DNA from: Anaeromyxobacter sp.
GTDB taxonomy: Bacteria; Myxococcota; Myxococcia; Myxococcales; Anaeromyxobacteraceae
NCBI GenBank assembly: GCA_049840735.1
Contig: JASGJN010000022.1
Span: 512,001 to 576,000 of the forward strand
Direction: 5' to 3'
Length of the DNA stretch: 64,000 bases
This document shows positions 35,876-52,737 of this stretch, in pieces (the stretch's first letter is position 1; every line of letters begins with the position of its first letter). The position numbers were made by a program, and so were the translations under genes. The notes under the pieces were generated by a model. The model was not told where the DNA came from, ran no database searches, and saw nothing but the letters and a program-made list of their open reading frames with translations.

Positions 35876-37813
35876 TCAGCGCCGCGGCGTGCGCCCGGCG
35901 GGGGAGCCGGCGAGCGCGGCCACGACCTGCGCGCGCCAGCCCTGGTTCCGGGCGAGCACGTCCTCGCGCGCCGTGCCGTAGGGAACGTCCGGGAGCACCG
36001 GCCGGTTCTCGAAGGCCATGCCCTCGAGGAAGCGCTCCGGCGGGGCGGTGGTGCCGCCGGCGAAGCCGGGCGGGAGCACGCCCATGGCGGCGTTGGGGAT
36101 CGACACCGTCAGCTGCGAGCCCGCGTCGGTCCAGCGCGCCGAGAGGTCCTTGGTCTCCTGCTGGCTGGCGCCGGCGCCCTCGGTCGGCCCGCCCACCAGC
36201 GTGGCCCGGCCGCTGCTGCGCAGCAGCGCCGCCAGCCGGTCGCAGGCGCTCATGCAGGCCGGCGAGGTGAGCGCGACGACACGGCCGGTGAACCCGTCGC
36301 CGGAGGGCCGGAGCGGCGGGTCGAGGAAGGCCGGCGTCAGCTCCTGGTGCTGCTGCCGCGCCTCGCGGATGGCGGCCAGCACCTCGGCCGCGCCGCTGCC
36401 GTCGCGCACCGGCCTGCCGCCGCCCGGGCCCAGCGCGCCCACCACCGGCGCGCGGGCGCGGTAGACGCGCTCGTTGCGGGCGGTGGCGCGCAGCACCAGC
36501 GCGCCGCCCGGCGCGGTCTCGCCGGGGCGGCCCAGCATGGCGGCCAGCCCGGTGGAGTGGGCCAGGTAGCCGCCCTCGTTCTGCCGCAGGTCGAGCACCA
36601 GGTCCTGCCCGCGGGCCTGGCAGCCGGCCACGAAGTCCTGCAACACGTCCAGGTAGGGCCGCCGCCGGCCGCCGGCGCTGAGCCCCTCGGAGTGGAAGGA
36701 GAGGAGCTGCGCGTAGCAGTAGCGCGCGCCCTGCGGGCCCAAGCCCTGGCCCAGCCGCGCCGCCAGGGCGCCGCCGTCGCCGGTGTAGGGCGTGAGCGCC
36801 GCGGCCTCCTCCGGCGCCAGGACCGGGTCGCCGCGCAGGAGCCCGTCGCGATCGCCCCGCTCGCGCAGCCAGGGGCCACGCGCGTCGGCGCGCCAGTCGA
36901 TGCGGTCGTCGCCGGTCACGCCGGTGCGGGCCAGCCAGGCGCGGACCAGCGGCTGGTCGCGCCCGTCCGGCCCCACCGCCCAGCGCAGCGTGACGGTGCG
37001 CCGCCCGGTGCCGTCCTCCAGCGTGAGGGCGGTGGTGGCGGCGGCGGGGTAGAGGAAGTCGCGGCGGGTGAGCGCGTCCACCGCCCGCTCCTGGCGCGCC
37101 GCGGCGGAGCTGCCCGGGACGTGGGCGGCCAGCTCGGCCAGCACCGCCGCCACCGGGCGCCCGTCCACCGCCACCAGCGCGTCGCCCACCCGCGGCGGCG
37201 CCACCGGGCCGCCCTCGGCGGCGCGTGCCGCGGCGAGCAGCGGGTCGAGGTGCGCCACCACCACGGCGCCGTCGGCCAGCTGGCGCACCCGCAGCCCGAG
37301 CGCCACAGGCGGCAGGCGCTTCGGCAGCGAGGGGATGAGGTGGCCGTCCTCGAAGGCGGAGAGGCAGGCGCGCATCCGGTCGTGGAACCGGAGCGGCTGG
37401 TCCTCCTCGGCCACGGCCGCCTCGGCGGCGACGCAGCCGTCGAGCTGGGCGCGGGCGTCGAAGCGCGGGGCGCCGCTCGCGGCCAGCAGCGCGCCCTTCA
37501 GGTGGAAGAAGACGTACCGGCGCTCCATGGCCTCGCGCAGCTCGCAGGCCACCTGCACCCGCTGCTGGGCGCTGCAGAGCGCGCGGCCCTGGCAGGCCTC
37601 GGGCGGCGGAGGCAGCTCGGCCCGGCACGGGTCGGCCTCGTCCTCCACGACCGGGTCCTCGATGACGTCGTCCACCTCCGCGCCGGCCGGGACGGCCGGG
37701 CCGGTCGAGGTGGAGGGCGTGGCCCGCACCACCTGACCGCTCCCGGCGCCGGCCGCTGCGGCGCAGGAGAGGAGGCAGAGCATGGCTGCGGCGAGTGGGA
37801 GTCGGGAGCGCAT
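35876..37813 (-). CDS. Secreted S41 family peptidase with PDZ-like domain
   Basis: DGHL, VGDALVAVDG, LVLDLRQNEGG, CMSACD, LVGGPTEGAG, PDVP; N-terminal signal. Confidence 0.85.
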   Translation of the reverse strand: MRSRLPLAAAMLCLLSCAAAAGAGSGQVVRATPSTSTGPAVPAGAEVDDVIEDPVVEDEADPCRAELPPPPEACQGRALCSAQQRVQVACELREAMERRYVFFHLKGALLAASGAPRFDARAQLDGCVAAEAAVAEEDQPLRFHDRMRACLSAFEDGHLIPSLPKRLPPVALGLRVRQLADGAVVVAHLDPLLAAARAAEGGPVAPPRVGDALVAVDGRPVAAVLAELAAHVPGSSAAARQERAVDALTRRDFLYPAAATTALTLEDGTGRRTVTLRWAVGPDGRDQPLVRAWLARTGVTGDDRIDWRADARGPWLRERGDRDGLLRGDPVLAPEEAAALTPYTGDGGALAARLGQGLGPQGARYCYAQLLSFHSEGLSAGGRRRPYLDVLQDFVAGCQARGQDLVLDLRQNEGGYLAHSTGLAAMLGRPGETAPGGALVLRATARNERVYRARAPVVGALGPGGGRPVRDGSGAAEVLAAIREARQQHQELTPAFLDPPLRPSGDGFTGRVVALTSPACMSACDRLAALLRSSGRATLVGGPTEGAGASQQETKDLSARWTDAGSQLTVSIPNAAMGVLPPGFAGGTTAPPERFLEGMAFENRPVLPDVPYGTAREDVLARNQGWRAQVVAALAGSPAGRTPRR

Positions 37814-38123
37814 CGTCACGGGGCCGGCGCGGCGAGGGAGCCCGCGCGCCGTCCCCCGGAGAACGGGCCATCCCGGGCGGAGAATTTCCGGAAGGGTTCG
37901 CTCAGCGTGTATGTCTCCGGCCACACCGAGGGTGACGTGCGCAGAGGCGGTGGCGCGGCGGCGGGGTGCGCCGAGGTGGGTGGGTGCAACCGTCCGCAGG
38001 TCGCGGGGTTGCGCGCGTGCTGCCCGCGCGCCCGGGCGCGCAGGTGGTCGAATGGGGCCGGTGTGGGCGCGCGGCGCCGGGCGTAGCCACTCCGCTCCTG
38101 CGATGCGCTAGGCTCCGCTACCA

Positions 38124-38768
38124 ATGACCCATCGGCACGTGGCGTACCTGGCCGGCTTCCTGGGCGCGACCGCCGCGGCGGCGGCCGGCGCAGGGATCCA
38201 GGCGCAGACCGGCCGCCCCGGCGCGGCGCTCTTCGCCTTCGTCGTCGCGGGCGCCTTCCTCTCGCTGCTGCTGGTGCCGCGCCTCGACGCCGGCAAGGCG
38301 GCCGGTCCGGTGCCCAACACCTTCAGGCCCAGCGCCGGCCTCCTGGTCACCGACGGCGCCGGGCGCGTGCTGGCGCTGGAGCGGCGCAAGGTGCCCGGGG
38401 CCTGGCAGCTCCCGCAGGGCGGGATTGATCCGGGGGAGTCGGCGGAGGCCGGCGCCTGGCGCGAGCTGCAGGAGGAGACCGGGCTCACCGCCAGCGGCGT
38501 CGTGCTGGTGCGGATCGCGCCGCGCTGGATCGCCTACGAGCTGCCGGAGGCGATGCGCTCGGCCAAGACCGGGCGCGGCCAGGCGCAGCTCTGGTTCCTG
38601 TTCCGCGCCGCCGGCGCGCCGCTCCCGGCGCCCGGCGAGGAGGCGCGCGCCTGGGCCTGGAAGCCGATGGCCGAGGTGCTGGCCGAGGTCGCGCCCTTCC
38701 GCCGGCCGGTGTACGAGGCGGTGGCGGAGCTGTTCGCGGCGGAGCTGGGTGGAACCGCGGGTCGCTAG
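38124..38768 (+). CDS. RppH-like Nudix hydrolase with N-terminal hydrophobic segments
   Basis: WQLPQGGIDPGESAEAGAWRELQEETGL, GQAQLWF, FRRPVY. Confidence 0.85.
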   Translation: MTHRHVAYLAGFLGATAAAAAGAGIQAQTGRPGAALFAFVVAGAFLSLLLVPRLDAGKAAGPVPNTFRPSAGLLVTDGAGRVLALERRKVPGAWQLPQGGIDPGESAEAGAWRELQEETGLTASGVVLVRIAPRWIAYELPEAMRSAKTGRGQAQLWFLFRAAGAPLPAPGEEARAWAWKPMAEVLAEVAPFRRPVYEAVAELFAAELGGTAGR

Positions 38769-39104: not shown

Positions 39105-40079
39105 CTACTGCTCCTCGCCCGTCGGGCAGACGCCGCAGTCGCTCTGGCAGGCGTCCGCCGTGGTGCCCGTGCCGCAGTGCTCGGTGAACTGGCACACGCC
39201 GTCACCGCACCGGTAGATGTCCGAGCCCTTCACCCGCGTGGAGAGCGCGTGGTAGGCGACGCCGCCCCAGGTGCAGGTGTCGTAGCTGATCCCGCTCGCC
39301 GACGGCGTGCACACGGTCGCGCAGTGGCCCACGTGGACCAGCGGCGGGCAGGCCACGCTCACGCCCGCGGCCTGGTCGTGCAGCGCGCAGGCGCGGGGGC
39401 TGGAGACGGCGGCGTCGCGCCCGGGGTGGTCGAGGCCGACGAAGTAGCCCTGCCCGTCGAACACGTTGCCGAAGAAGCAGCCCTCGCGCTGGGAGAAGGT
39501 GCGCAGCTCGTCGGCCGACACCTCGATCTCCTCGCCGCCCGCCGTGCGCCCCTCCACCGCGATGGTCACGCTCACGCCGTAGCGGTTGGAGAGCGCGGCC
39601 AGGCAGGCCGAGACCGCCTGCTTCTCCGCCACCGTCGGAGCGGCGCCCGCCGCCCACGCCGGCGCCAGCCCCAGGCCGCCGGGCCAGGCGTAGGTGACGC
39701 CGCTCACCGGATGCGTCCAGGTCAGCGTCGCGCCGGCCGGCGCCGCGCAGCGGTAGGTGTAGCGGAGGAAGACCTCGGCCAGCTGGGGCGAGCTGTCGAA
39801 CCAGCTCACGAAGTCGGCCGAGCCGAGCGTTGCGGGCGAGATCCCGTTCTGGCTGATGCCGTTCTGGGAGATCCCGTTCTGCGAGATGCCGTTCTGGCTG
39901 ATGCCGTTCGCGCCCTCGAGGCCGGCCTGACCGCCCGCGAAGTGGTCCAGGGCCTGGCCGAGCTCGTCGCCGCTCGTGTCCACCACGCCGCGGGGAGCCT
40001 GGCTGCAGCCTGCAGTGAGGAGGAATGCCACGGTCGCGATCGCGCTCCGCAGGGCCCCCAGGTGTCGGATGGTAAGCAT
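39105..40079 (-). CDS. Cys-rich lipoprotein with tandem NGISQ pentapeptides
   Basis: AGGAGG RBS, lipobox TAG-C, (NGISQ)x4-NGISP, LGLAPAW, SACLAA, EGCFFGN, Cys-rich tail CGDGVCQFTEHC. Confidence 0.85.
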   Translation of the reverse strand: MLTIRHLGALRSAIATVAFLLTAGCSQAPRGVVDTSGDELGQALDHFAGGQAGLEGANGISQNGISQNGISQNGISQNGISPATLGSADFVSWFDSSPQLAEVFLRYTYRCAAPAGATLTWTHPVSGVTYAWPGGLGLAPAWAAGAAPTVAEKQAVSACLAALSNRYGVSVTIAVEGRTAGGEEIEVSADELRTFSQREGCFFGNVFDGQGYFVGLDHPGRDAAVSSPRACALHDQAAGVSVACPPLVHVGHCATVCTPSASGISYDTCTWGGVAYHALSTRVKGSDIYRCGDGVCQFTEHCGTGTTADACQSDCGVCPTGEEQ

Positions 40080-40491
40080 CTTGTTGTCCTCCTGGTCGGC
40101 GCTGCGTCCGATCCGGCGATACCGAGAGTGTGACGGGCCGATTGTTTGTCCCGCGTTTGCGGCGCTGCAAGGTAGGCGGTGCGCTTACCCGAACTCGCGA
40201 CCTCTGACTCCAACGGGGGAGTGGCGCTCACCCGGGTGCTCGCCTCCCGTCCCCAAATTCGATTACCCAACGATCGCGGGTCATTGGGGCGGACCCAGGT
40301 TGGCGGCCCAGGTGATGTAAGCTGGGGTAAATAGGGGCGACTCGGGTTTGGTGTACCTGAGTCACGGGATGCACTTTCATGCACTTTGGGTACGCAAACA
40401 TAACCTGAACGGGTTGCCGCGAGCGTCTGATGCACCGTGCGTGTAACAATGCCCTTCACGACGGACCGAGCTGGTCCGCCCGACCGCGCCC

Positions 40492-43400
40492 ATGACCCGT
40501 TGCCCCATCTGTGGACGCAGAGTGAAAGGGCCTCATCCGCCTTGCGGCGGCGTGGCGCCCGAGCTTCCGGCCCCCTCGGCCGAGCGGCCGGACGTGCCCG
40601 GCTACCGCGTGCAGGCGCTGCTGGGCGAGGGTGGCTTCGCCCGCGTCTTCGAGGCGCAGCGGGTCCCCGACGGCGGCGTGGTGGCGCTCAAGGTGGCGCG
40701 GCCGGAGGCCGCCGGCGCCTCGACGGCGCTGGCCCGCGAGGCGGCGGTGCTGCGCGCGGTGGGACCGCCCACGGTGCCGGCGCTGCTCGAGATCGGGCGG
40801 CTGGCCGGCGGCGGCACGCCCTTCGTGGCCATGGAGCGGCTCACCGGGCCGTCGCTGGCGCAGGCGCTCGAGGAGGCCGGCGGGGCGCTCGAGCCCGCGG
40901 CGGTGGCCGGCGCGGCGCTGGCGCTGCTGGACGCCCTGGAGCGGCTGCACGCCAGCGGCTTCGCCCACGGGGACCTGAAGCCGGAGAACGTGGTGCTGGC
41001 CGGTGAGCCCCCGGTGGCGCGGCTCCTGGACCTGGCGCTGGCGGCGCCGGTCGAGTCGAAGAAGGGGCCGGTGGTGCCGGCGGCGGAGGCGCCCACCGGG
41101 ACGCCGGAGTACATGGCGCCGGAGCAGTGGCGCGGCGAGCGGCCCGGGCCGCGCACCGATCTCTACGCGTTCGGCGCCATGCTGCTGGAGCTCATCACCG
41201 GCCGGCCGCCGTACCTGGGCGCGCCCGCCGAGGTCCGCTACCTGCACGAGAACCTGCGGCCGCCGCTGGGCGGCCTGCCGCGCGGCCTCTCCAAGGTGCT
41301 GGAGGGCTGCCTGGCCAAGTCGGCGGCGGACCGCCCCGCCTCGGCGCGGGCGGTGCGCGAGGCGCTGGAGCCCATCCTGACCCGCGGCCAGGCCGGGGCC
41401 CGGTCCGCTCCCGCGCGCGCCGCCGAGCCGAGCGCCGGCGCGCGGCGGACGGTGGGCGTGGTCTTCCTGGCCACCAGCGCCGACGCCGCCACGCTGCGCG
41501 CCGCCGCGGCCTGGCTGGGCGGCGTGCACGCGCACGCCAGCGTCACCGAGCACGCGCTGGTGTTCGACGCGGTCGGCGTGCTCAACCCGGTGGAGCGCGC
41601 GCTGGCGGCGGCGCGGGCGGCGGTGGCGCGCGGCCTGACCCGCCGCGCGCTGGTGGACCTGGTGCCGGTGCTGGTGCGCGCCCGCCCCGGCGGCGGCGAG
41701 CGCTACCTCTCCTCCGCCTTCTCCCAGCCGGACAGCTGGCTGGGGCCGGACGACCCGCCGGGCGTGCTGCTCACGCGCCGCGCCGGCGATCACCTGCCCG
41801 GCCTGCCGCTGTCCCCCTCGCCGAAGCGGCTCGACCTGCTGGTCTGCCGCGAGCTGCCCAAGGTGGAGCCGACCGTGGTGCGGCAGGGGGCGCCCCCGCT
41901 GCTCGGGCGCGACGACCTGCTGGTGCAGCTGCTGGAGACGGCCCGCTCGGCGGCGCGCGACCGGGCCCCGACGGTGGCGGCGGTGCTGGGCGACGCCGGG
42001 ATGGGCAAGAGCCACCTGGCCGCGGTGCTGGCCGAGCAGCTGCGGGCCGAGCGCGGCTCGGCCTCGGCCCCGGCGCCGGAGGTGGTGGAGCTGCGCGCCC
42101 GCGCCGCCGAGGGCGCGGACGTGCTGGGGCTCCTGCTGCGCTGGCTGCTGGGCGTGGCGCCGGAGGCCACCGCCCCGGCCGACGCCGGGCGGGCGCTGCT
42201 CGCCGCGGCGCTGGCGCCGGACAAGCTCTCCGAGGCCTGGCCCGCCGCGGCCCTGGCCATGGGCTGGCTGGAGCCGGGCGCGCCGGCGCTGGCCGCCTCC
42301 GGCGCCGCCCCCGGCGCCCTGGCCAGCCTGGCGGCGCGCGCCGCGGCGGCGCTGCTGCGCCGGCGCAGCTCCGCCCGCCCGCTCTGCCTGCTGCTCGACG
42401 ACGCCGACCAGGCCAGCGGCGCGGCCCTGGACGCGCTGGAGCAGGCGGCGCTGGCCGAGGAGCACGCCGCGGTGCTGGTGCTGGCGCTGGCCACGCCCGG
42501 CTTCCTGGAGCGGCGCCCGGGCTGGGGCGAGCGCGCCCAGCGCCGGCTGGTGGAGCGTGTGGAGCCGCTCTCGCAGCCGGCCGCGGAGGCCCTCTGCCAG
42601 CAGCTGCTGGCGCCGGCCGAGGGGATCCCGGCCGCGGCGCTGGCCCACCTGGCCGAGCGCGCCGCGGGCGTGCCGCTGCTGATGGTGGAGCTGGTGCGCG
42701 GGCTGCGGGCGGCCGGGCTGGTGCGGCCGCGCCCCGGCGGCCGGACCGCCTACCTGGCCACCGACGAGCTGGACAAGGTGCTCGACCTGCCGGCGGTGGA
42801 GTGGCTGGCCGCGGCCGCGCTGCGCGCCATGCCGCCGGACCTGGCCGCCCACGCGCAGCTGGCGGCGCTGCTGGGCGACGGCGTGGTCGCCGCCGAGGCG
42901 GCCGGCGTGCTCTCCGGGCTGGTCGAGGCCGGCCTGGGCCCGGCCTTCCCGCTCGACGCCGAGGCCGCCACCCGCCGGCTGGTGGAGTTCGGGCTCCTGT
43001 CCCGCCACCGCGACGGGCGGACCAGCTTCCGCCTCCCGGTGGTCCGCGACGCGGTGGCCCGCTCCACGCCGGAGGTGCTGCGCCGGGCCATCCACGAGGC
43101 CGCCTTCCGCTTCCACGCGCGCCCCGGCCCGCTGCCGGAGGTGCTGCGGCTGGGGCGCCTGGCCACCCACGCCGCCGAGACCGGCCGGCGGGCCGAGGCC
43201 GGCGAGGCCTGCCTGGAGCTGGCCGCCGACCGCGCCGCCCGCCACGCCTACGTCGAGGCCGAGGGGTTCTACTCCCGCGCGCTGGGGCTGCTCGACGAGG
43301 GGGCCGCGCGCGGGCGGCTGGAGGGGCTGCGCGGGCGCGGGCTGATGCGCAGCCGCGTGGCGCGCCACCGCGACGCGGTCACCGACCTGGACGCGGCGGC

Positions 43401-44415
43401 GCTGCTGGCCCGCGCGCTCTCCGACGGCGACGCCGAGCGCCACGCCCTGCTGGACGAGGCCACCGCGCTGGACTGGATGAACGACTTCGCCTCGGCGCGC
43501 GACCGGGTCCGCCAGGCGGCCGAGGTGGCCGGGCCGGTGCCCCCGGCGCTGCAGGCGCGGCTGCTGCTGGGCCAGGGGCGGATCCTCTTCCGCGCCTGCC
43601 GCTGGCAGGAGGCGGTGGGGCCGCTGGAGGCCGCCGCCGCCCAGGCAGGCGCGCTGGGCGACGAGGGCTACGAGACGCGGGTGGCGGCGCTGCTCCTGCT
43701 CGGGACGGCGCTGCCGTACCTGGGGCGCATCGAGGCCGCCGAGGCGGCGCTGGGGCAGGCCCGCGACGACGCGGCCGGCCGCGGCGACCTGGTCCACGTG
43801 GCGGTGGCCCTCTCCAACGCCCGCAACCCGGCCCTGGCCCGCGGCGACGCCGAGGGGGCCGCCGCCGGGCTGCGCGAGTCGATCCGCATCGCCCGCACGC
43901 TGGGCCACCTCGACTCCGAGTACTACGCCCGCTACAACCTGGCCGAGCTCCACTACCACCTGGAGGCGCCGGCCGAGGCCGCGCCGCACCTGGAGCGGGC
44001 AGAGGCCATCGAGGCGGCGCACCCGGAGGCCGCGCCCGGGCCGCTGGCCCGGCTGTTGCGGGCGCGGCTCTTGCTGCACGCCGGGGACCTGCCCGGCGCG
44101 GCCCGGGCGCTGGAGCGCTACCGCGAGGCGCGGGCCGCCTGGGCCACCGACACCGCGCCCTCCGAGGCGGTGCTGGCCGACATGGTGGCGCTGGCCACCG
44201 GGGGCGGGAGCGACGCGGACTGGGAGGCGCTGCTGAGCCGGTCCGGGCGCGACTCCGTCGAGCAGGAGCCGCTGGAGGTGCTGGAGGTCCGGGCGCAGGC
44301 CGCGCGGCGCGAGGGGCGGCCGGAGGTGGCGCGCCAGGCGCTGGAGGCGGCGCTGGCGCTGGGGGCGAGGCTGCCCGGGCCGCTCACGGCGCGGATCCGG
44401 CGGGTGCTGTCGTAG
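40492..44415 (+). CDS. Ser/Thr kinase + degenerate cyclase-like + AAA/STAND ATPase + TPR-like repeats
   Basis: [47 protein letters not shown]; helical repeats to C-terminus. Confidence 0.9.
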
Positions 44416-44466
44416 GGGGTCAAACCCTTGCACATTACACTTTCCGGCGCGGGGCGCCCCCCTGCC

Positions 44467-46158
44467 TCACCCGCCCAGCCGCGCCGCCAGCGCGGCGGCC
44501 GCCACCGCGGCCAGCGACTCGCCGGCGATGGCGCCGGCCGCGATCACCGGCGCGAGCCGCTCCAGCTGCGCCGGCCGGAGGCGGCGCCAGAGCTCGCTCC
44601 CCAGCGCCCCGGCGGCCAGCGTCAGCGCGTAGTGGGCGGGGATGATGAGCCCCATGCCCACGGCCCCGGGCGTCGGCACCGGCCACCGCCGGCCCACGCT
44701 GGTGCGGCCGAGCAGGTCGAGGAGCACGCCCAGCGCGAAGGCCACGGCGAACGCCGCCCCGGCGCCGCGCGGCAGCGAGGCGGCGCCGCCGGCCACCAGC
44801 GCCAGCGCCTTCCAGGGCAGCGCCGCGGGGGCGGGCAGGGCCGGGGTGCCGACGGGGTGGGCGGCGGTCACCAGCAGGTAGGCGGGGGCGACCAGCAGCG
44901 CGCCGGCGGCGGTGCCCACCAGCAGCCCCACCGCCTGCCGCCGCGCCGAGGCCGAGAGCACCTGCCCGGCGCGCAGCGCCCAGAGCGACACCGAGGCCTG
45001 CGAGGCCGCGCCGGAGACCACGCCGCCGACGCCCAGGCTGGCCGGCCCGGCCGCGCCCGCGGCCAGGTCGCCCGCCACCTGCGCCAGCTGGCCGATCTCG
45101 CCGGCCGGGGAGATGTCGGTCTGGCCGGTGGCGCGGGCCGACACGCCGCCCAGCACGGGCACCAGCACCAGCGCCAGCGCCAGCGCGCCGGGGCCGAGAT
45201 CGAAGGCCAGGGCGCCGGCGACCCCGACGCACAGCAGCGCGGCGGCGCCGCCCAGCAGCGCGGCCGGGCTGGCGCCGCGCAGGCTGGCCAGGTCGCGCAG
45301 CGCGCCGGGGACCGCGCGCAGGCGGGAGAGCAGCGACACGGTGGCGCCGCCCAGCATCAACCCCACGCCCGGCCAGGCCAGCCAGGCCACCAGCGCGCCG
45401 TACGACGCCTCCGGCACGGCGCCGCTCCGCACCAGCCAGGGCGCCAGCCCGGCCCAGCCGATGGCCGCGCCGCCCAGCACCGCCAGCCCGATGCGCGGCC
45501 CCACGAGCATCCCGGCGCCGGCCATCATGGGGCTCCAGGCGAAGCCCAGGCCGAAGGCGGCCGCCGGCGCGCCGGCCACCGCCAGCGGGGGCGCGCTGAA
45601 GGACGGGATCACACCGGCCACGTCCCGCGCCACGGTCAGCGCGGCGGCGCCGGCGCCCACCCCGGCCAGCACCCGCGCGTCGGCGGCGGCCTCGCCGGCG
45701 GTGGCCTCGATGACCCGCGCGGTGGCCACGCCGGTGGGGAAGGGGAGCCGCTCCTCCTCCAGCAGCCGGCGGCGCAGCCCCAGCCCGAGCGCCACGCCCA
45801 CCCCGCCCAGCCCCAGCGCCCAGGCGGCCAGCAACCACGCGGGGACGCCGCGGCCCAGCATCTCCAGCGCGGGCACCGCCCCCAGCAGCCCGGCGGCCGC
45901 CGGCATGCCGCCCACCGCGGTGGCGGTGGTCTGGGCCAGGTTCACCTCCAGGTGCGAGATCGGCGCACGTCCGCGCCGCGATAGCGCCGGCAGCAGGGCG
46001 GCCGCCAGCAGCGCCGCCACGATGGAGCCGGAGTCCCACCAGCCGGTCCGCAGCCCCATCGACAGGTTGGCCAGGGCCAGCACCGCCCCGGCCACCAGCC
46101 CCACCCCGAGGGCGCGGGGGGTCAGCTCCGGGATGGGCTGCGCGGGCGAGGTCGGCAT
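44467..46158 (-). CDS. OPT/YSL family oligopeptide transporter (start 46158 or 46167)
   Basis: [51 protein letters not shown]. Confidence 0.9.
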
Positions 46159-46185
46159 CGCGGGCATGATACCGTTCCTTCCGCC

Positions 46186-47517
46186 ATGGTCGACGACCAG
46201 ACCCTCCCGCTGGAGACCTCGCCGGGCGGCCCGCCGCACGCGCCGCTGCCGGCCGGCGCGCGGGTGGGCGACTACGCGGTGCTGGGCGTGCTCGGCAACG
46301 GCACGCACGGCGCGGTCTACCTGGCCGAGCACGTGCGGCTGGGCCGGCGGGTGGCGCTGAAGGTGCTGCACCGGGAGGCGGCCGCCTCGCCCGAGCTGAC
46401 GGCGCGCTTCGTGCGCGAGGCGCGCGCCGTGAACCAGATCCGCCACCCCGGCATCGTGGACGTGTACGACCTGGGCGAGCTCCCCGGCGGCCAGCCCTAC
46501 TGCGTCATGGAGCTGCTGCGCGGCCGCACCCTGCTGGCGGTCATCGCCGAGCGGGCCCCGCTCTCGACGGCCGAGGCGGTGGGCTACCTCGAGCCGCTCT
46601 GCGAGGCGCTGCAGGCGGCCCACGCCGCCGGCGTGGTGCACCGGGACGTGAAGGGGAGCAACGTGATGGTCCTCGACGAGGGCCATCCACCCAAGGTGAA
46701 GCTGCTCGACTTCGGCGTGGCCAAGGTGCGGGATCCGGGCGGGCAGGGGCTGACCGCGGTGGGCGAGCGGCTGGGCACGCCCGCCACCATGTCGCCGGAG
46801 CAGATCCTGGGGCAGCCGGTGGACGCCCGCGCCGACGTCTACGCGCTGGGCGTGCTCTTCTTCCAGCTGCTCACCGGCCGCCGGCCCTTCGAGGCGGAGA
46901 CGCCGGAGGAGCTGGAGCGCCAGCACCTGGAGGTGGCGCCGCCGCGCCCCAGCGACCTGGCGCCGGTGCCGCGGGCCTTCGACGCGGTGGTGGCGCGGGC
47001 GCTGGAGAAGACCGCCGCGCGCCGCTTTCCCTCCGCGCTGGCCCTGCTGGAGGCGGCGCGGGCCGCGCTGGAGCCCTCGCAGGCCTCCGGCACGCGGCGC
47101 ACCGCGGCGCTGGCGGTGCACGTGGTGACCCGCGTGACCGCCGGCGGCGAGGCGGTGCTGCTGGCCCAGGCCGACGCGGTGGAGTCGGCCGAGGCGGCGC
47201 TGCGGCGGGCCGGCTTCGAGCTGCTCCACGCCACCGGCTCCTCGCTGCTGGCGGTGAAGGTGCAGCCGCCTGCGGCGCTGGACGCGCGGGCCGCGGCGGT
47301 CGAGGCGCTGGCCCTGGGGCGCTGGCTGGCGGCGGCGCCGCTCGACGCCGACGTGCAGCTGGGGGTGGCGGTCCACGCCGCCGAGGCCGAGGTGCGCGAC
47401 ACCGCCGGCGGGCCGGAGGTCGCGGGCGGCCCCATCTGCCGGACCGAGGCCTGGATCCCGTCGCAGCCCATGGGCTTCATGGCCACCCCGGCGGCCCTGG
47501 CCGCGGCCGGCGAGTAG
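46186..47517 (+). CDS. Ser/Thr protein kinase with C-terminal degenerate cyclase-like domain
   Basis: [38 protein letters not shown]; tail LGVAVH...VAGG. Confidence 0.9.
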
Positions 47518-47657
47518 GCCGCGCGCCGGCGCCGGCGCGGGAGGCCGGTGCCCGGTTGTGCGGCAGCGCCGGCCCCGGGTCCGTGCAGCGCGCGGGCCGG
47601 GGCCCCCGGCCGCGCGTCCAACCTGCCCTCTCCACGTGCACCGCGCGGGCGCCCGCT

Positions 47658-47673
47658 GGGCCGGCCTCTTGCA
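47658..47673 (+). promoter_or_regulatory. Candidate sigma54 promoter of the transglutaminase/ligase operon
   Basis: GGGCCGG-CCTC-TTGCA: GG and TTGCA at exact -24/-12 spacing, 27 bp before the GTG. Confidence 0.5.
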
Positions 47674-47700
47674 GTCACCCGGGACAGCCCCGGGGATCGC

Positions 47701-51012
<3,312 letters not shown>

Positions 51013-52737
51013 GTGGACCCGGCCCTGCTCGAGGAGCTGCGCGCGCACGACGCCGAGGTGGCGCGCCGCGGGCTGCCCATCTGGATCGGGGCCGAGCCGA
51101 CCTTCACCGACCGTTCATCGCTCGACCCGCCCTGGCTCTTCCTGGCGGCGGGCGGCGACAAGGAGGCGCGGGCGCGGCGCCTGCTGGAGGCGCTGGCCCC
51201 GCGGCTGCCCGGCCCGGTGCGGCTGCGCCGCGTGCGCGGCCGGCGCTACCCGGGGGAGGAGGCGCCGCGCTTCTGCCTGGGCGTGCGCTTCCCGCGCCAG
51301 GGCCCGCCCTCCCATGCGCCCCCAGAGGCGGTGCAGCTGGACGAGGAGGGCACGGCCCCCGAGCCGGGGGGCGACGCCTGGCTGACGGTGACGCCCGATC
51401 CCGGCGTGGTGGAGGTGAACACCGATCCGCTGCCCGACCTCTGCGCCTTCGCGGCGCGGATCGAGGCGCTCTACGCCGCCGCGGCCGAGGCCGGCCTCTC
51501 GCCGGTGCGCTGGCGCTACAACGGCGACCGGACCGACTCCGGCGGCGGCGGCCAGCTCACGCTGGGCGGCCCGGCGCCGGAGCGGAGCCCGTTCTTCGCG
51601 CGGCCGCAGCTCCTGCCGCGGCTGGTCCGCTACCTGAACCGCCACCCGGCGCTCTCCTACGCCTTCGCGCCGGAGTGCGTGGGGAGCGCCGGCCAGGGGC
51701 CGCGCCCGGACGAGGGGGCGCGCGAGCGGTTCGAGGAGCTGCCGGTGGCGCTGGAGGCGCTGGCGTCCCACGGCGAGCGGGTCTCGCCGGAGGAGCTGTT
51801 CGCGGCGCTGGGGCCGCTGCTGGTGGACGGGGCCGGCAACCCGCACCGCGCCGAGCTCAACGTGGAGAAGCTCTGGAACCCGGCCCACGACCGCGGGCAG
51901 CTGGGGGTGGTGGAGCTGCGCGCGCTGCGCATGCCGCCCACGCCGGCGCGGCTGGCGGCGGTGGCCTGGCTCTTCCGCGCCGTGGCGGCGCGGCTGGCCA
52001 GCGCGCCCTACGAGGAGCCGCTGCTGGACTGGGGCGCCCAGCTGCACGAGCGCCACGGGCTGCCCTGGTTCCTGCGCCGCGACCTGGAGGCGGTGCTGGA
52101 GGACCTGGCCGTGCACGGGCTGGGCGCCGGGCCGGCGCTGCAGGCGGAGCTCTTGCGCCCGCCCGAGCCGGTGGCCACGGTGGCGCTCCCGGGCGGCGGC
52201 ACGCTGGAGCTCACGCCGGCGCTGGCCTTCTGGCCGCTGCTGGGCGACGTGGCCTCGCAGGAGGGGCGCGGCGCGCGGCTGGTGGACGCCTCCTCGGCCC
52301 GGGTGCAGCTGCTGCTCACGCCGCCGGAGGGCGGCGTCCCCGGCCGGCTCGCCGCCGGCGGCTGGCGCGTGCCGCTCCACCCGGTCCCCGGCGGCGGCGC
52401 GCGGCGGCTGGGGAGCGTGCTCTACCGCAGCTTCACCCCGCGCCCCGGGCTGCACCCGGGGCTGGGGCCGGACGATCCGCTGGTGCTGGACTGGGAGCGC
52501 GGCCCCGACCGGCTCCGCGTGGCGCTGCACGGCTGGGCGCCGGGCGGCGGCGCCTACGACGGCCTCCCCGGCGACGAGGCCGAGGCCGCCCGCCGCCGCG
52601 CCGCGCGGGTGGTGGTCTCGCCCGGCCTGCCGCTGGAGCCGCGCCAGGGGCGCGCCAGCGGCTGGGTGCTCGACCTGCGCCGCCCCGCCACCGCGCTCCT
52701 GCAGCCCTCCGCCTCCCCCCACCCCGCCGTCCCCTGA
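51013..52737 (+). CDS. Stand-alone DUF2126-type putative amidoligase
   Basis: [40 protein letters not shown]. Confidence 0.85.

Follow-up and report, generated by a model that had tools for sequence, protein, structure and literature searches.

The DNA analysed here, called the window throughout, is a stretch of 64,000 nucleotides from an Anaeromyxobacter sp. (assembly GCA_049840735.1, contig JASGJN010000022.1, positions 512,001 to 576,000, forward strand). This report concerns four adjacent genes at positions 39105-47517 of the window, which correspond in large part to the Esp genes of Myxococcus xanthus. They encode a lipoprotein with a tandem pentapeptide array (39105-40079, minus strand, 324 aa), a PktB8-type protein made of a kinase, a STAND NTPase and a TPR region (40492-44415, plus strand, 1307 aa; the STAND kinase below), an EspB-type OPT transporter (44467-46167, minus strand, 566 aa) and a PktA5-type second kinase (46186-47517, plus strand, 443 aa). 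The G+C content of the window is about 78%, and a mechanical list of open reading frames (ORFs) is therefore full of false frames; the OPT frame is concealed within a 2193-aa antisense frame of the default list. The real frames were chosen by codon-position G+C. A preliminary description had seen four neighbouring genes in two divergent pairs, with the OPT and kinase starts less than 30 bp apart; codon-position G+C together with Pfam confirmed the arrangement, and the two starts are separated by 18 bp as called here. The lipoprotein and STAND kinase genes diverge from an intergenic region of 412 bp in the gene calls (40080-40491), around which G+C falls to 0.71 (40000-40999). The arrangement is not due to chance, because the same genes recur together in other genomes (see below).

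The three kinase and OPT genes were found to be orthologues of M. xanthus pktB8, espB and pktA5. Compared with M. xanthus AM003, the STAND kinase is 42% identical over 1332 aa to the product of the gene beside espB, the OPT 49% identical over 561 aa to that of the espB-position gene, and the second kinase 49% identical over 437 aa to that of the pktA5-position gene. The order observed in relatives, STAND kinase, OPT, FHA hybrid kinase and second kinase, is that of M. xanthus pktB8-espB-espA-pktA5. We therefore regard the gene set, with high confidence, as an Esp-type cluster without EspA in an Anaeromyxobacter genome and not as a new kind of system. The likeness to M. xanthus Esp (espA, espB, pktA5, pktB8; MXAN_0930-0933) covers the clustering of the same three protein types at 42-49% identity as well as the pairing of an RD with a non-RD kinase, the second kinase of the window having HRD and the STAND kinase HGD; PktA5 and PktB8 were reportedly assigned to these classes by Stein et al. 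in 2006. The gene order is unlike that of M. xanthus Esp, the lipoprotein gene of the window being divergent from the STAND kinase gene.

In M. xanthus, pktA5, espB and pktB8 are MXAN_0930, 0932 and 0933 (bioRxiv 10.64898/2026.08.28.747804). PktA5 works with a second kinase and EspB, the complex may contact EspA, and the output is a faster turnover of MrpC (PMC4320627). Esp-type control of developmental timing through MrpC turnover has been derived from M. xanthus genetics only (PMC4320627; bioRxiv 10.64898/2026.07.28.741289). The preliminary description had proposed an importer that feeds a TPR-STAND sensor, which is relayed through the second kinase; this scheme fits the parts as well as the published PktA5/PktB8/EspB data (PMC4320627), but the known Esp locus had been missed. 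Another idea would make the STAND NTPase and kinase an Avs- or MADS-like module of anti-phage defence, next to which a transporter happens to be encoded. The sole point in its favour is that the kinase domains match the NCBIfam model antiphage_MADS6 at 106 and 151 bits, far under the 460-bit cut-off. Nevertheless, their M. xanthus orthologues regulate development and have mutant phenotypes (PMC4320627; bioRxiv 10.64898/2026.08.28.747804), and the chromosomal synteny of the genes is conserved; a defence role is thus highly improbable.

The fifth recurrent gene of the relatives' clusters carries an FHA domain and takes three alternative forms: an FHA-PAS-histidine kinase-receiver hybrid of the EspA type in loci L013, L014, L018, L019 and L022; a 127-aa FHA protein in L015, where it was scanned, with ORFs of the same length at the matching position in L016 and L017; and an FHA sigma-54 activator in the clusters of L020 and L021. 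The output of these clusters is therefore modular, as the FHA-bearing partner swaps between hybrid kinase, small FHA protein and sigma-54 activator, or is absent. Most Esp relatives have such a partner, whereas no EspA-type FHA-PAS-kinase-receiver gene was found in the window's genome: no match spans both FHA and kinase, and the best ones begin at query residue 200 or later. Across the genome 17 FHA matches were obtained, none of them within the window. Fruiting bodies are not known from Anaeromyxobacter-type organisms, and the output here therefore cannot be the same developmental programme.

In the STAND kinase, Pfam recognises Pkinase (3.9e-30), AAA_16 (6.7e-12) and TPR_12 (0.0021). A non-RD Ser/Thr kinase domain with HGD and no DFG occupies residues 38-287, AAA_16 with the Walker A motif GDAGMGKS occupies residues 470-662, and the TPR region, for which orthologues give TPR_MalT matches, extends to the C-terminus. 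With a P-loop of the AAA_16/NB-ARC type ahead of a repeat sensor domain, the protein belongs to the STAND NTPase class. MalT and the actinobacterial and myxobacterial cyclase-ATPase-TPR proteins share this succession of an AAA_16/NB-ARC NTPase and a MalT-like TPR; unlike them, the window protein has an N-terminal kinase, and its cyclase-like part is without recognisable sequence signatures. The second kinase is an RD Ser/Thr kinase with HRD and DFG (Pkinase 1.1e-41). A transmembrane segment is absent from both kinases.

The preliminary description had also placed a degenerate cyclase-like region in both kinases, which stands at the level of fold for the second one. Its last 150 residues (47065-47514, plus strand) were modelled at a predicted local distance difference test score (pLDDT) of 93.6, and in a Foldseek search against the PDB all top matches were class III cyclases (best E 6.9e-7; 133 at E≤0.001), those to 6fht, 5oyh, 2w01 and 1ybt having a probability of 1.00 and a template modelling (TM) score of about 0.6. 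Among 25 aligned orthologues of the second kinase, G50, L62, H104, G122 and W130 of the domain are invariant and no Asp or Glu is, and the Pfam cyclase signature (PF00211) was found in neither kinase region even at E 10. The absence of an invariant acidic residue and of a Pfam cyclase signature is the reason for which the modelled domain is read as a dead cyclase; the model shows the second kinase to end in a catalytically dead class III cyclase fold. For the STAND kinase the claim found weak support. Its linker (residues about 300-480) matched the second-kinase domain in hhalign with a probability of 32.6% (E 4.7e-4, 99 columns), BLASTP between the two regions gave E 0.18, and a PDB profile search with the linker returned nothing relevant.

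Co-folding of the STAND linker with the second-kinase domain gave a score of 0.75, and the best of three controls gave 0.25. The mark used for this score is met by 116 of 157 solved complexes and by two of 215 mismatched pairs. The runs agreed in at least 82% of contacts, with a partner pLDDT of at least 87. It is thus predicted that the two kinases pair through their cyclase-like domains. The predicted interface comprises residues 95-112 of the STAND segment and 23-36 of the second-kinase segment, in the numbering of the co-fold. As cyclase domains have been solved as dimers, the co-fold pass may reflect that likeness, and it supports an interaction rather than demonstrating one. The predicted pseudo-cyclase pairing would provide a structural reason for the joint action of the two kinases.

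The transporter is a complete member of its family. PF03169 matches it at E 5.5e-65 and 220.6 bits (cut-off 25.8), the alignment taking in positions 1-622 of the 623 in the profile, and TIGR00728 scores 179.5 bits (cut-off 128.35). M. xanthus EspB served as a query in an OPT family study (PMC3061005), in which all prokaryotic OPTs were placed in the iron-siderophore subdivision; many of them were still judged to be peptide carriers from genome context, "possibly" in subcluster 5A, which includes Anaeromyxobacter and Myxococcus OPTs. A Ser/Thr kinase and a phosphothreonine-binding protein were noted there near an Anaeromyxobacter OPT, and no lipoprotein is mentioned in the passages covered here. 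Eukaryotic OPTs transport tetra- and pentapeptides according to the same study. In another source, five OPTs were counted in M. xanthus and loosely tied to peptide signalling (PMC3924187).

The co-occurrence of the lipoprotein gene with these three genes was followed in a first survey of 40 relatives and the window's own genome, from which 13 loci were fetched. The lipoprotein was present in 11 of the 41 genomes, among them 8 of 24 of the same genus and both genomes of a second family, f6. The best OPT matches in the 41 genomes lie on the same contigs as the lipoprotein matches, 1.7-7.7 kb away. All four genes were found in nine of the 13 loci, in three different orders, and three loci hold a lipoprotein paralogue only. 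The co-occurrence elsewhere on which the preliminary description had let its proposal depend was thus observed, including in named Myxococcaceae and Archangiaceae genomes. In a sample of 301 Myxococcota genomes, 86 contain family members (f1 9/39, f6 73/115, f8 1/7, f14 2/20), and the family was absent from the other families of this sample. Neighbours were counted within 10 kb of a family member at 79 named loci, many of which end at contig ends: an OPT was met at 16 loci, a STAND kinase at 17, the second kinase at 21 and an EspA-type gene at 19. In M. xanthus AM003 itself, a family member with NGLST units directly follows pktA5.

A second sample comprised 26 genomes from 25 genera of family f6, with cut-offs of E≤1e-100 for an EspB orthologue and E≤1e-40 for the lipoprotein. 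An EspB orthologue was found in 11 of these genomes and the lipoprotein in nine, all nine among those 11; the lipoprotein was found at this cut-off in none of the 15 genomes without an EspB orthologue. The two genes are within about 7 kb of one another in eight of the 11 EspB-bearing genomes. At L114, a lipoprotein form of 30% identity, divergent from the STAND kinase, lies in the esp cluster; with this distant form included, nine of the 11 EspB-type loci of this one-per-genus sample are lipoprotein-bearing. At L113 the contig ends 580 bp upstream of the STAND kinase. No statistical claim is made from the 26-genome counts because kin are not independent. Taken together, linkage of the lipoprotein to esp-type clusters is seen in two families and persists through changes of gene order, and the lipoprotein is very probably a functional member of the Esp-type cluster. 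In the literature covered here, the Creative Commons papers of PMC and bioRxiv, no earlier reference was found to the lipoprotein or to repeats of this kind in an Esp context.

It might be asked whether the lipoprotein is a mere neighbour or a regulated target, with the OPT serving as a nutritional importer of peptides or metal chelates and the kinases answering intracellular cues. Most lipoprotein paralogues indeed lie away from esp-type genes, one esp cluster (L112) has no lipoprotein nearby, the siderophore subdivision of prokaryotic OPTs (PMC3061005) would suit such an importer, and the published Esp work covered here contains no lipoprotein. However, the adjacency persists across three gene orders and two families, the presence or absence of the lipoprotein tracks that of EspB orthologues in the 26-genome sample, and a paralogue has been paired independently with another STAND-TPR gene. 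Where a locus has no esp genes, the neighbour met most often is a gene of about 1046 aa with Guanylate_cyc, NB-ARC/AAA and TPR, which is divergent from a lipoprotein paralogue in 12 loci, one of them in M. xanthus AM003. These are true Guanylate_cyc-NB-ARC-TPR genes; the kinase-type and cyclase-type pairings indicate that two different STAND-TPR types each have their own lipoprotein paralogue. We consider the role of mere neighbour quite unlikely. Close kinship between the PktB8-type and the cyclase-type STAND proteins was considered and rejected (BLASTP best E 0.13).

The lipoprotein begins with a signal peptide that bears the lipobox LTAGC; a spacer and the pentapeptide array come next, and a Cys-rich domain of about 240 aa, with conserved Cys, Glu and Arg residues, forms the C-terminal part. 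Neither Pfam nor NCBIfam assigns the protein to a family, and none of its 984 relatives at E≤0.001 carries a functional name. The AlphaFold2 (AF2) model has a pLDDT of 86.7, with residues ~70-320 above 90. For the Cys-rich domain, no solved fold was matched by Foldseek against the PDB at E≤0.001 (best E 1.8), and the wide search with VIA-align gave a best Z of 2.7 with no chain at Z≥5; a weak or missing match is no proof of a new fold. As modelled, the domain looks new. The profile of the domain alone retrieved 2143 cluster representatives at E≤0.001, and in 22 longer or more distant representatives that were scanned, RCC1-type propellers were seen in six, DUF11 in two and a CBM13-like lectin in one. 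Many distant members of the superfamily begin with identical tandem pentapeptides that lack Gly (NALTP, NSIAI, NRLAT, NQLAT, NTIMP). The finding thus flags a superfamily (~2,100 sequence clusters) of unexplained secreted proteins that combine identical tandem pentapeptides with a domain of unmatched fold. Assignment of the lipoprotein to the ADYC family was tried and rejected, as Pfam gave no match to that family in 67 relatives at E≤1.

In the window, the array is made of four NGISQ units and one NGISP unit at residues 58-82 of the translation (39834-39908, minus strand), and Tandem Repeats Finder (TRF) reports a period of 15 nt with 4.7 copies and 82% matches at 39839-39909. The first four units differ at synonymous sites only (Ser AGC/TCG/TCC, Gly GGC/GGG). 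Among 120 relatives, 86 have at least three identical units, three have two identical units and three have no array; in the remaining 28 the units are all different and follow a position-specific pattern (NGLxx, NGLxG, NG[IL]C[QG], NGLxx). The unit varies between proteins (NGLSQ, NGMSQ, NGLST, NGLSV, NGLAF, NGISQ), and an array usually holds 5-8 of them. Giant arrays of 26-46 units (NGVFT, NGINT, NGINL) were observed in the esp-linked lipoproteins of three genomes of the same genus, at L015 (genome G006), L016 (G014) and L017 (G003), where they are broken by occasional NGLAE, NGLVG and NGLGP units.

Over 98 arrays, the proportions of synonymous and nonsynonymous differences between units were 0.374 (pS) and 0.111 (pN), and 802 of 2687 protein-identical unit pairs were also identical in DNA. 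Myxococcus arrays alternate rare codons (AAT, TTG, TCA). The units of one array are about as far from their positional counterparts in a sister species as from the other units, which means that arrays reshuffle while the peptide stays. As the DNA of the units turns over and the peptide is held, selection acts on the protein sequence and the arrays are not the result of recent slippage; as protein, the units are subject to purifying selection.

Of the five positions of the unit, 1 (Asn) and 3 (aliphatic) alone are kept throughout the superfamily, and these are the two inward-facing positions in a pentapeptide (Rfr-fold) solenoid. The preliminary description had spoken of a pentapeptide-repeat lipoprotein, which is right as to the tandem pentapeptide array and the lipobox; the protein does not belong to the Pfam Pentapeptide family, since PF00805 gave no match for it and a match at E 0.062 for one of 67 relatives. 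The Rfr-type beta-helix has the same five-residue period with conservation at positions 1 and 3, its consensus being A-[DN]-[LF]-x-x as against N-x-[LI]-x-x in the window family. Unlike Rfr proteins, the lipoproteins usually have 5-8 units that are identical within a protein, and the window protein shows neither a PF00805 match nor a helix in AF2. With the GLTT repeat profile, matches were obtained in 41 of 67 relatives, and the long L015 array matches the SV2 luminal pentapeptide domain at E 9.5e-16. AF2 gives residues 51-63 a pLDDT under 50, with confidence climbing from residue 68 or so; no strands or helix are modelled in the array, and the packing of its last units against the domain is predicted with high confidence. 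The conservation of positions 1 and 3, the subfamily with non-identical units and the fusions to binding domains favour a structural role, in which the array would be a short solenoid or a stalk of regular build.

If the array were simply a stalk, the strict identity of the outward-facing positions (2, 4 and 5) within a protein would be left unexplained, and for this reason a second interpretation of the array, in line with the preliminary description, stays alive, namely that it is a polyprotein precursor cut to identical pentapeptides, which would be taken up by the OPT and bound in the STAND kinase by its TPR region, as in Rap-Phr/RRNPP signalling. The array would then be a pheromone polyprotein, and every cell would display or release one species-typical pentapeptide in many copies, read by STAND-TPR kinases or cyclases, and its product, if cut after Asn, might be G-[ILMV]-x-x-N. 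The unit is repeated identically at least three times in 86 of the 120 relatives and differs between proteins; the DNA of the units diverges without a change in the peptide; tetra- and pentapeptides are carried by eukaryotic OPTs (PMC3061005); the kinase and the cyclase architecture alike set an exported product next to a cytoplasmic TPR sensor; and the units of M. xanthus AM003 are NGLST in the copy linked to esp and NGLSF in the one linked to the cyclase. On the other hand, NGLST is also the unit of a third paralogue in M. xanthus AM003, and the units are therefore not orthogonal. Moreover, the 28 relatives with position-specific units include the esp-linked copy of L022, and clear arrays are lacking in the lipoprotein relatives at L020 and L021, which are distant esp-type loci. 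The units follow one another without spacers or recognisable processing sites. No protease is conserved nearby: an S41 peptidase occurs in none of the other loci and Peptidase_C39_2 in four. Arrays extend over the whole superfamily, with some proteins fused to RCC1, DUF11 or CBM13 domains, and the prokaryotic OPTs lie in the siderophore subdivision (PMC3061005). On balance, the peptide-pheromone reading has partial support and is a live minority view; processing of the array into a peptide is doubtful, and so is the product named above. If true, this reading would provide the input to the Esp developmental timer that has long been sought, as well as a counterpart of Rap-Phr in diderm bacteria, and the signalling would be spread over hundreds of Myxococcota genomes. 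A comparison of units with TPR regions was available for one pair, G006 (NGVFT) against G014 (NGINT), in which the kinase is 75% and the TPR region 71% identical, the G014 gene being split in two frames.

RRNPP systems (Rap-Phr, PlcR-PapR, NprR-NprX, with Opp import) likewise place an exported product beside a cytoplasmic TPR sensor with an importer of a peptide family. As to a peptide receptor, what was observed in the STAND kinase is a TPR region and no transmembrane segment. In RRNPP systems, however, the product is a short secreted pro-peptide, whereas the window has a 324-aa lipoprotein with a confidently folded domain of 240 aa; the importer is the Opp ABC transporter and not an OPT; the sensor is a transcription factor or phosphatase and not a STAND NTPase-kinase; and the host of the window is diderm. 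Tandem-repeat peptide precursors are known in yeast alpha-factor and in the multi-core precursors of ribosomally synthesised and post-translationally modified peptides (RiPPs). The lipoprotein resembles these in carrying many identical short units in one exported protein, and differs from them in that it has no spacers, processing motifs or linked maturation enzymes, and has a large folded domain after the array.

The interpretation that we prefer, with a probability of roughly 45%, is that the gene set is an Esp-type Ser/Thr-kinase cluster without EspA whose neighbouring repeat lipoprotein is its extracytoplasmic input arm. The lipoprotein would be exported and lipid-anchored, its short N-x-[LI]-x-x array serving above all to hold out the Cys-rich domain on a stalk or solenoid of regular build. 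This domain may bind or generate a small ligand, which the OPT would import. Binding of the ligand by the TPR sensor of the STAND kinase would switch the NTPase, the non-RD STAND kinase would pair with the RD kinase through the cyclase-like domains, and the resulting phospho-threonine marks might be read by FHA-domain proteins, which are encoded elsewhere in this genome. The Esp literature covered here names neither an input signal of Esp nor a substrate of EspB, and a conserved, uncharacterised lipoprotein directly beside pktA5 in a genetic model organism is a concrete candidate for that input. What is new here is the conserved lipoprotein linkage, the selected repeat units, the new-looking domain and the predicted pseudo-cyclase pairing; the Esp genes were already known, and the lipoprotein is not part of the published Esp system in the literature covered.

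Several observations weigh against this input-arm interpretation. The family is present at 3-8 copies per Myxococcaceae genome, and most copies lie away from the kinases and OPT, all three being within 10 kb at 14 of the 79 named loci. At L112 the esp cluster is complete, yet no lipoprotein gene was seen within 4.3 kb of it; at L022, one of the 13 fetched loci, the OPT is missing although the lipoprotein and the two kinases are there. An array of five units is too short for a stable solenoid by itself, the AF2 confidence there is low, and strict identity within a protein at outward-facing positions has no obvious account in a plain stalk. The cyclase-like nature of the STAND kinase linker is argued from a weak profile match. 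The window has no FHA gene, and the steps of ligand production, import and sensing are putative.

A number of minor observations concern the relatives of these genes. The lipoprotein gene occurs in tandem duplicates, up to three in a row, at L019 (12550-15898, plus strand), L037, L038, L044 and L056, and the third copy of L019 has decayed units (LGLSV NGLTV NGLNV NGLTV NGLSV DGLET). L020 (G029) and L021 (G036) belong to genomes that also have a first esp-type cluster; the one at these loci is more distant and combines STAND kinase, OPT, second kinase and FHA sigma-54 activator; the lipoprotein relative there is larger (389-492 aa) and its pentapeptide period barely recognisable. A complete Myxococcus-like esp cluster with an NGLST lipoprotein is present at L084, which is titled Comamonas sp.; as it groups with Myxococcus in the lipoprotein tree, which was built by a quick method, this assembly is probably mislabelled or mixed. 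At L016 (8034-11917, minus strand), in a one-contig genome, the PktB8-type gene lies in two overlapping frames, one with kinase and linker and the other with NTPase and TPR, which suggests a frameshift or a split gene. Another paralogue group is found near a TonB_C and TonB-dependent receptor protein of 902 aa and histidine kinases (L064, L068, L086, L101, L105).

As to the surroundings, an S41 peptidase gene identified by Pfam (35876-37924, minus strand) ends 1.18 kb from the lipoprotein gene. The preliminary description had offered this enzyme for processing of the precursor, and the suggestion fails, as no homologue lies near any of 89 other loci searched; the peptidase is not part of the system. 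A Peptidase_C39_2 protein of about 418 aa was seen within about 5 kb of paralogues at L037, L044, L056 and L058, three of which are Corallococcus loci and one Archangium. Downstream of the second kinase, a 1154-aa protein with Bact_transglu_N, Transglut_core and DUF2126 is followed by a 574-aa protein with DUF2126 only (47548-52737, plus strand), and a 214-aa NUDIX-only gene (38124-38768, plus strand) adjoins the lipoprotein gene; neither the transglutaminase/DUF2126 nor the NUDIX neighbours are conserved near the 89 other loci. In relatives L014 and L015, an LplA-B_cat and NUDIX fusion gene lies downstream of the second kinase instead, and the opposite position of the NUDIX gene in the window hints at a local rearrangement.

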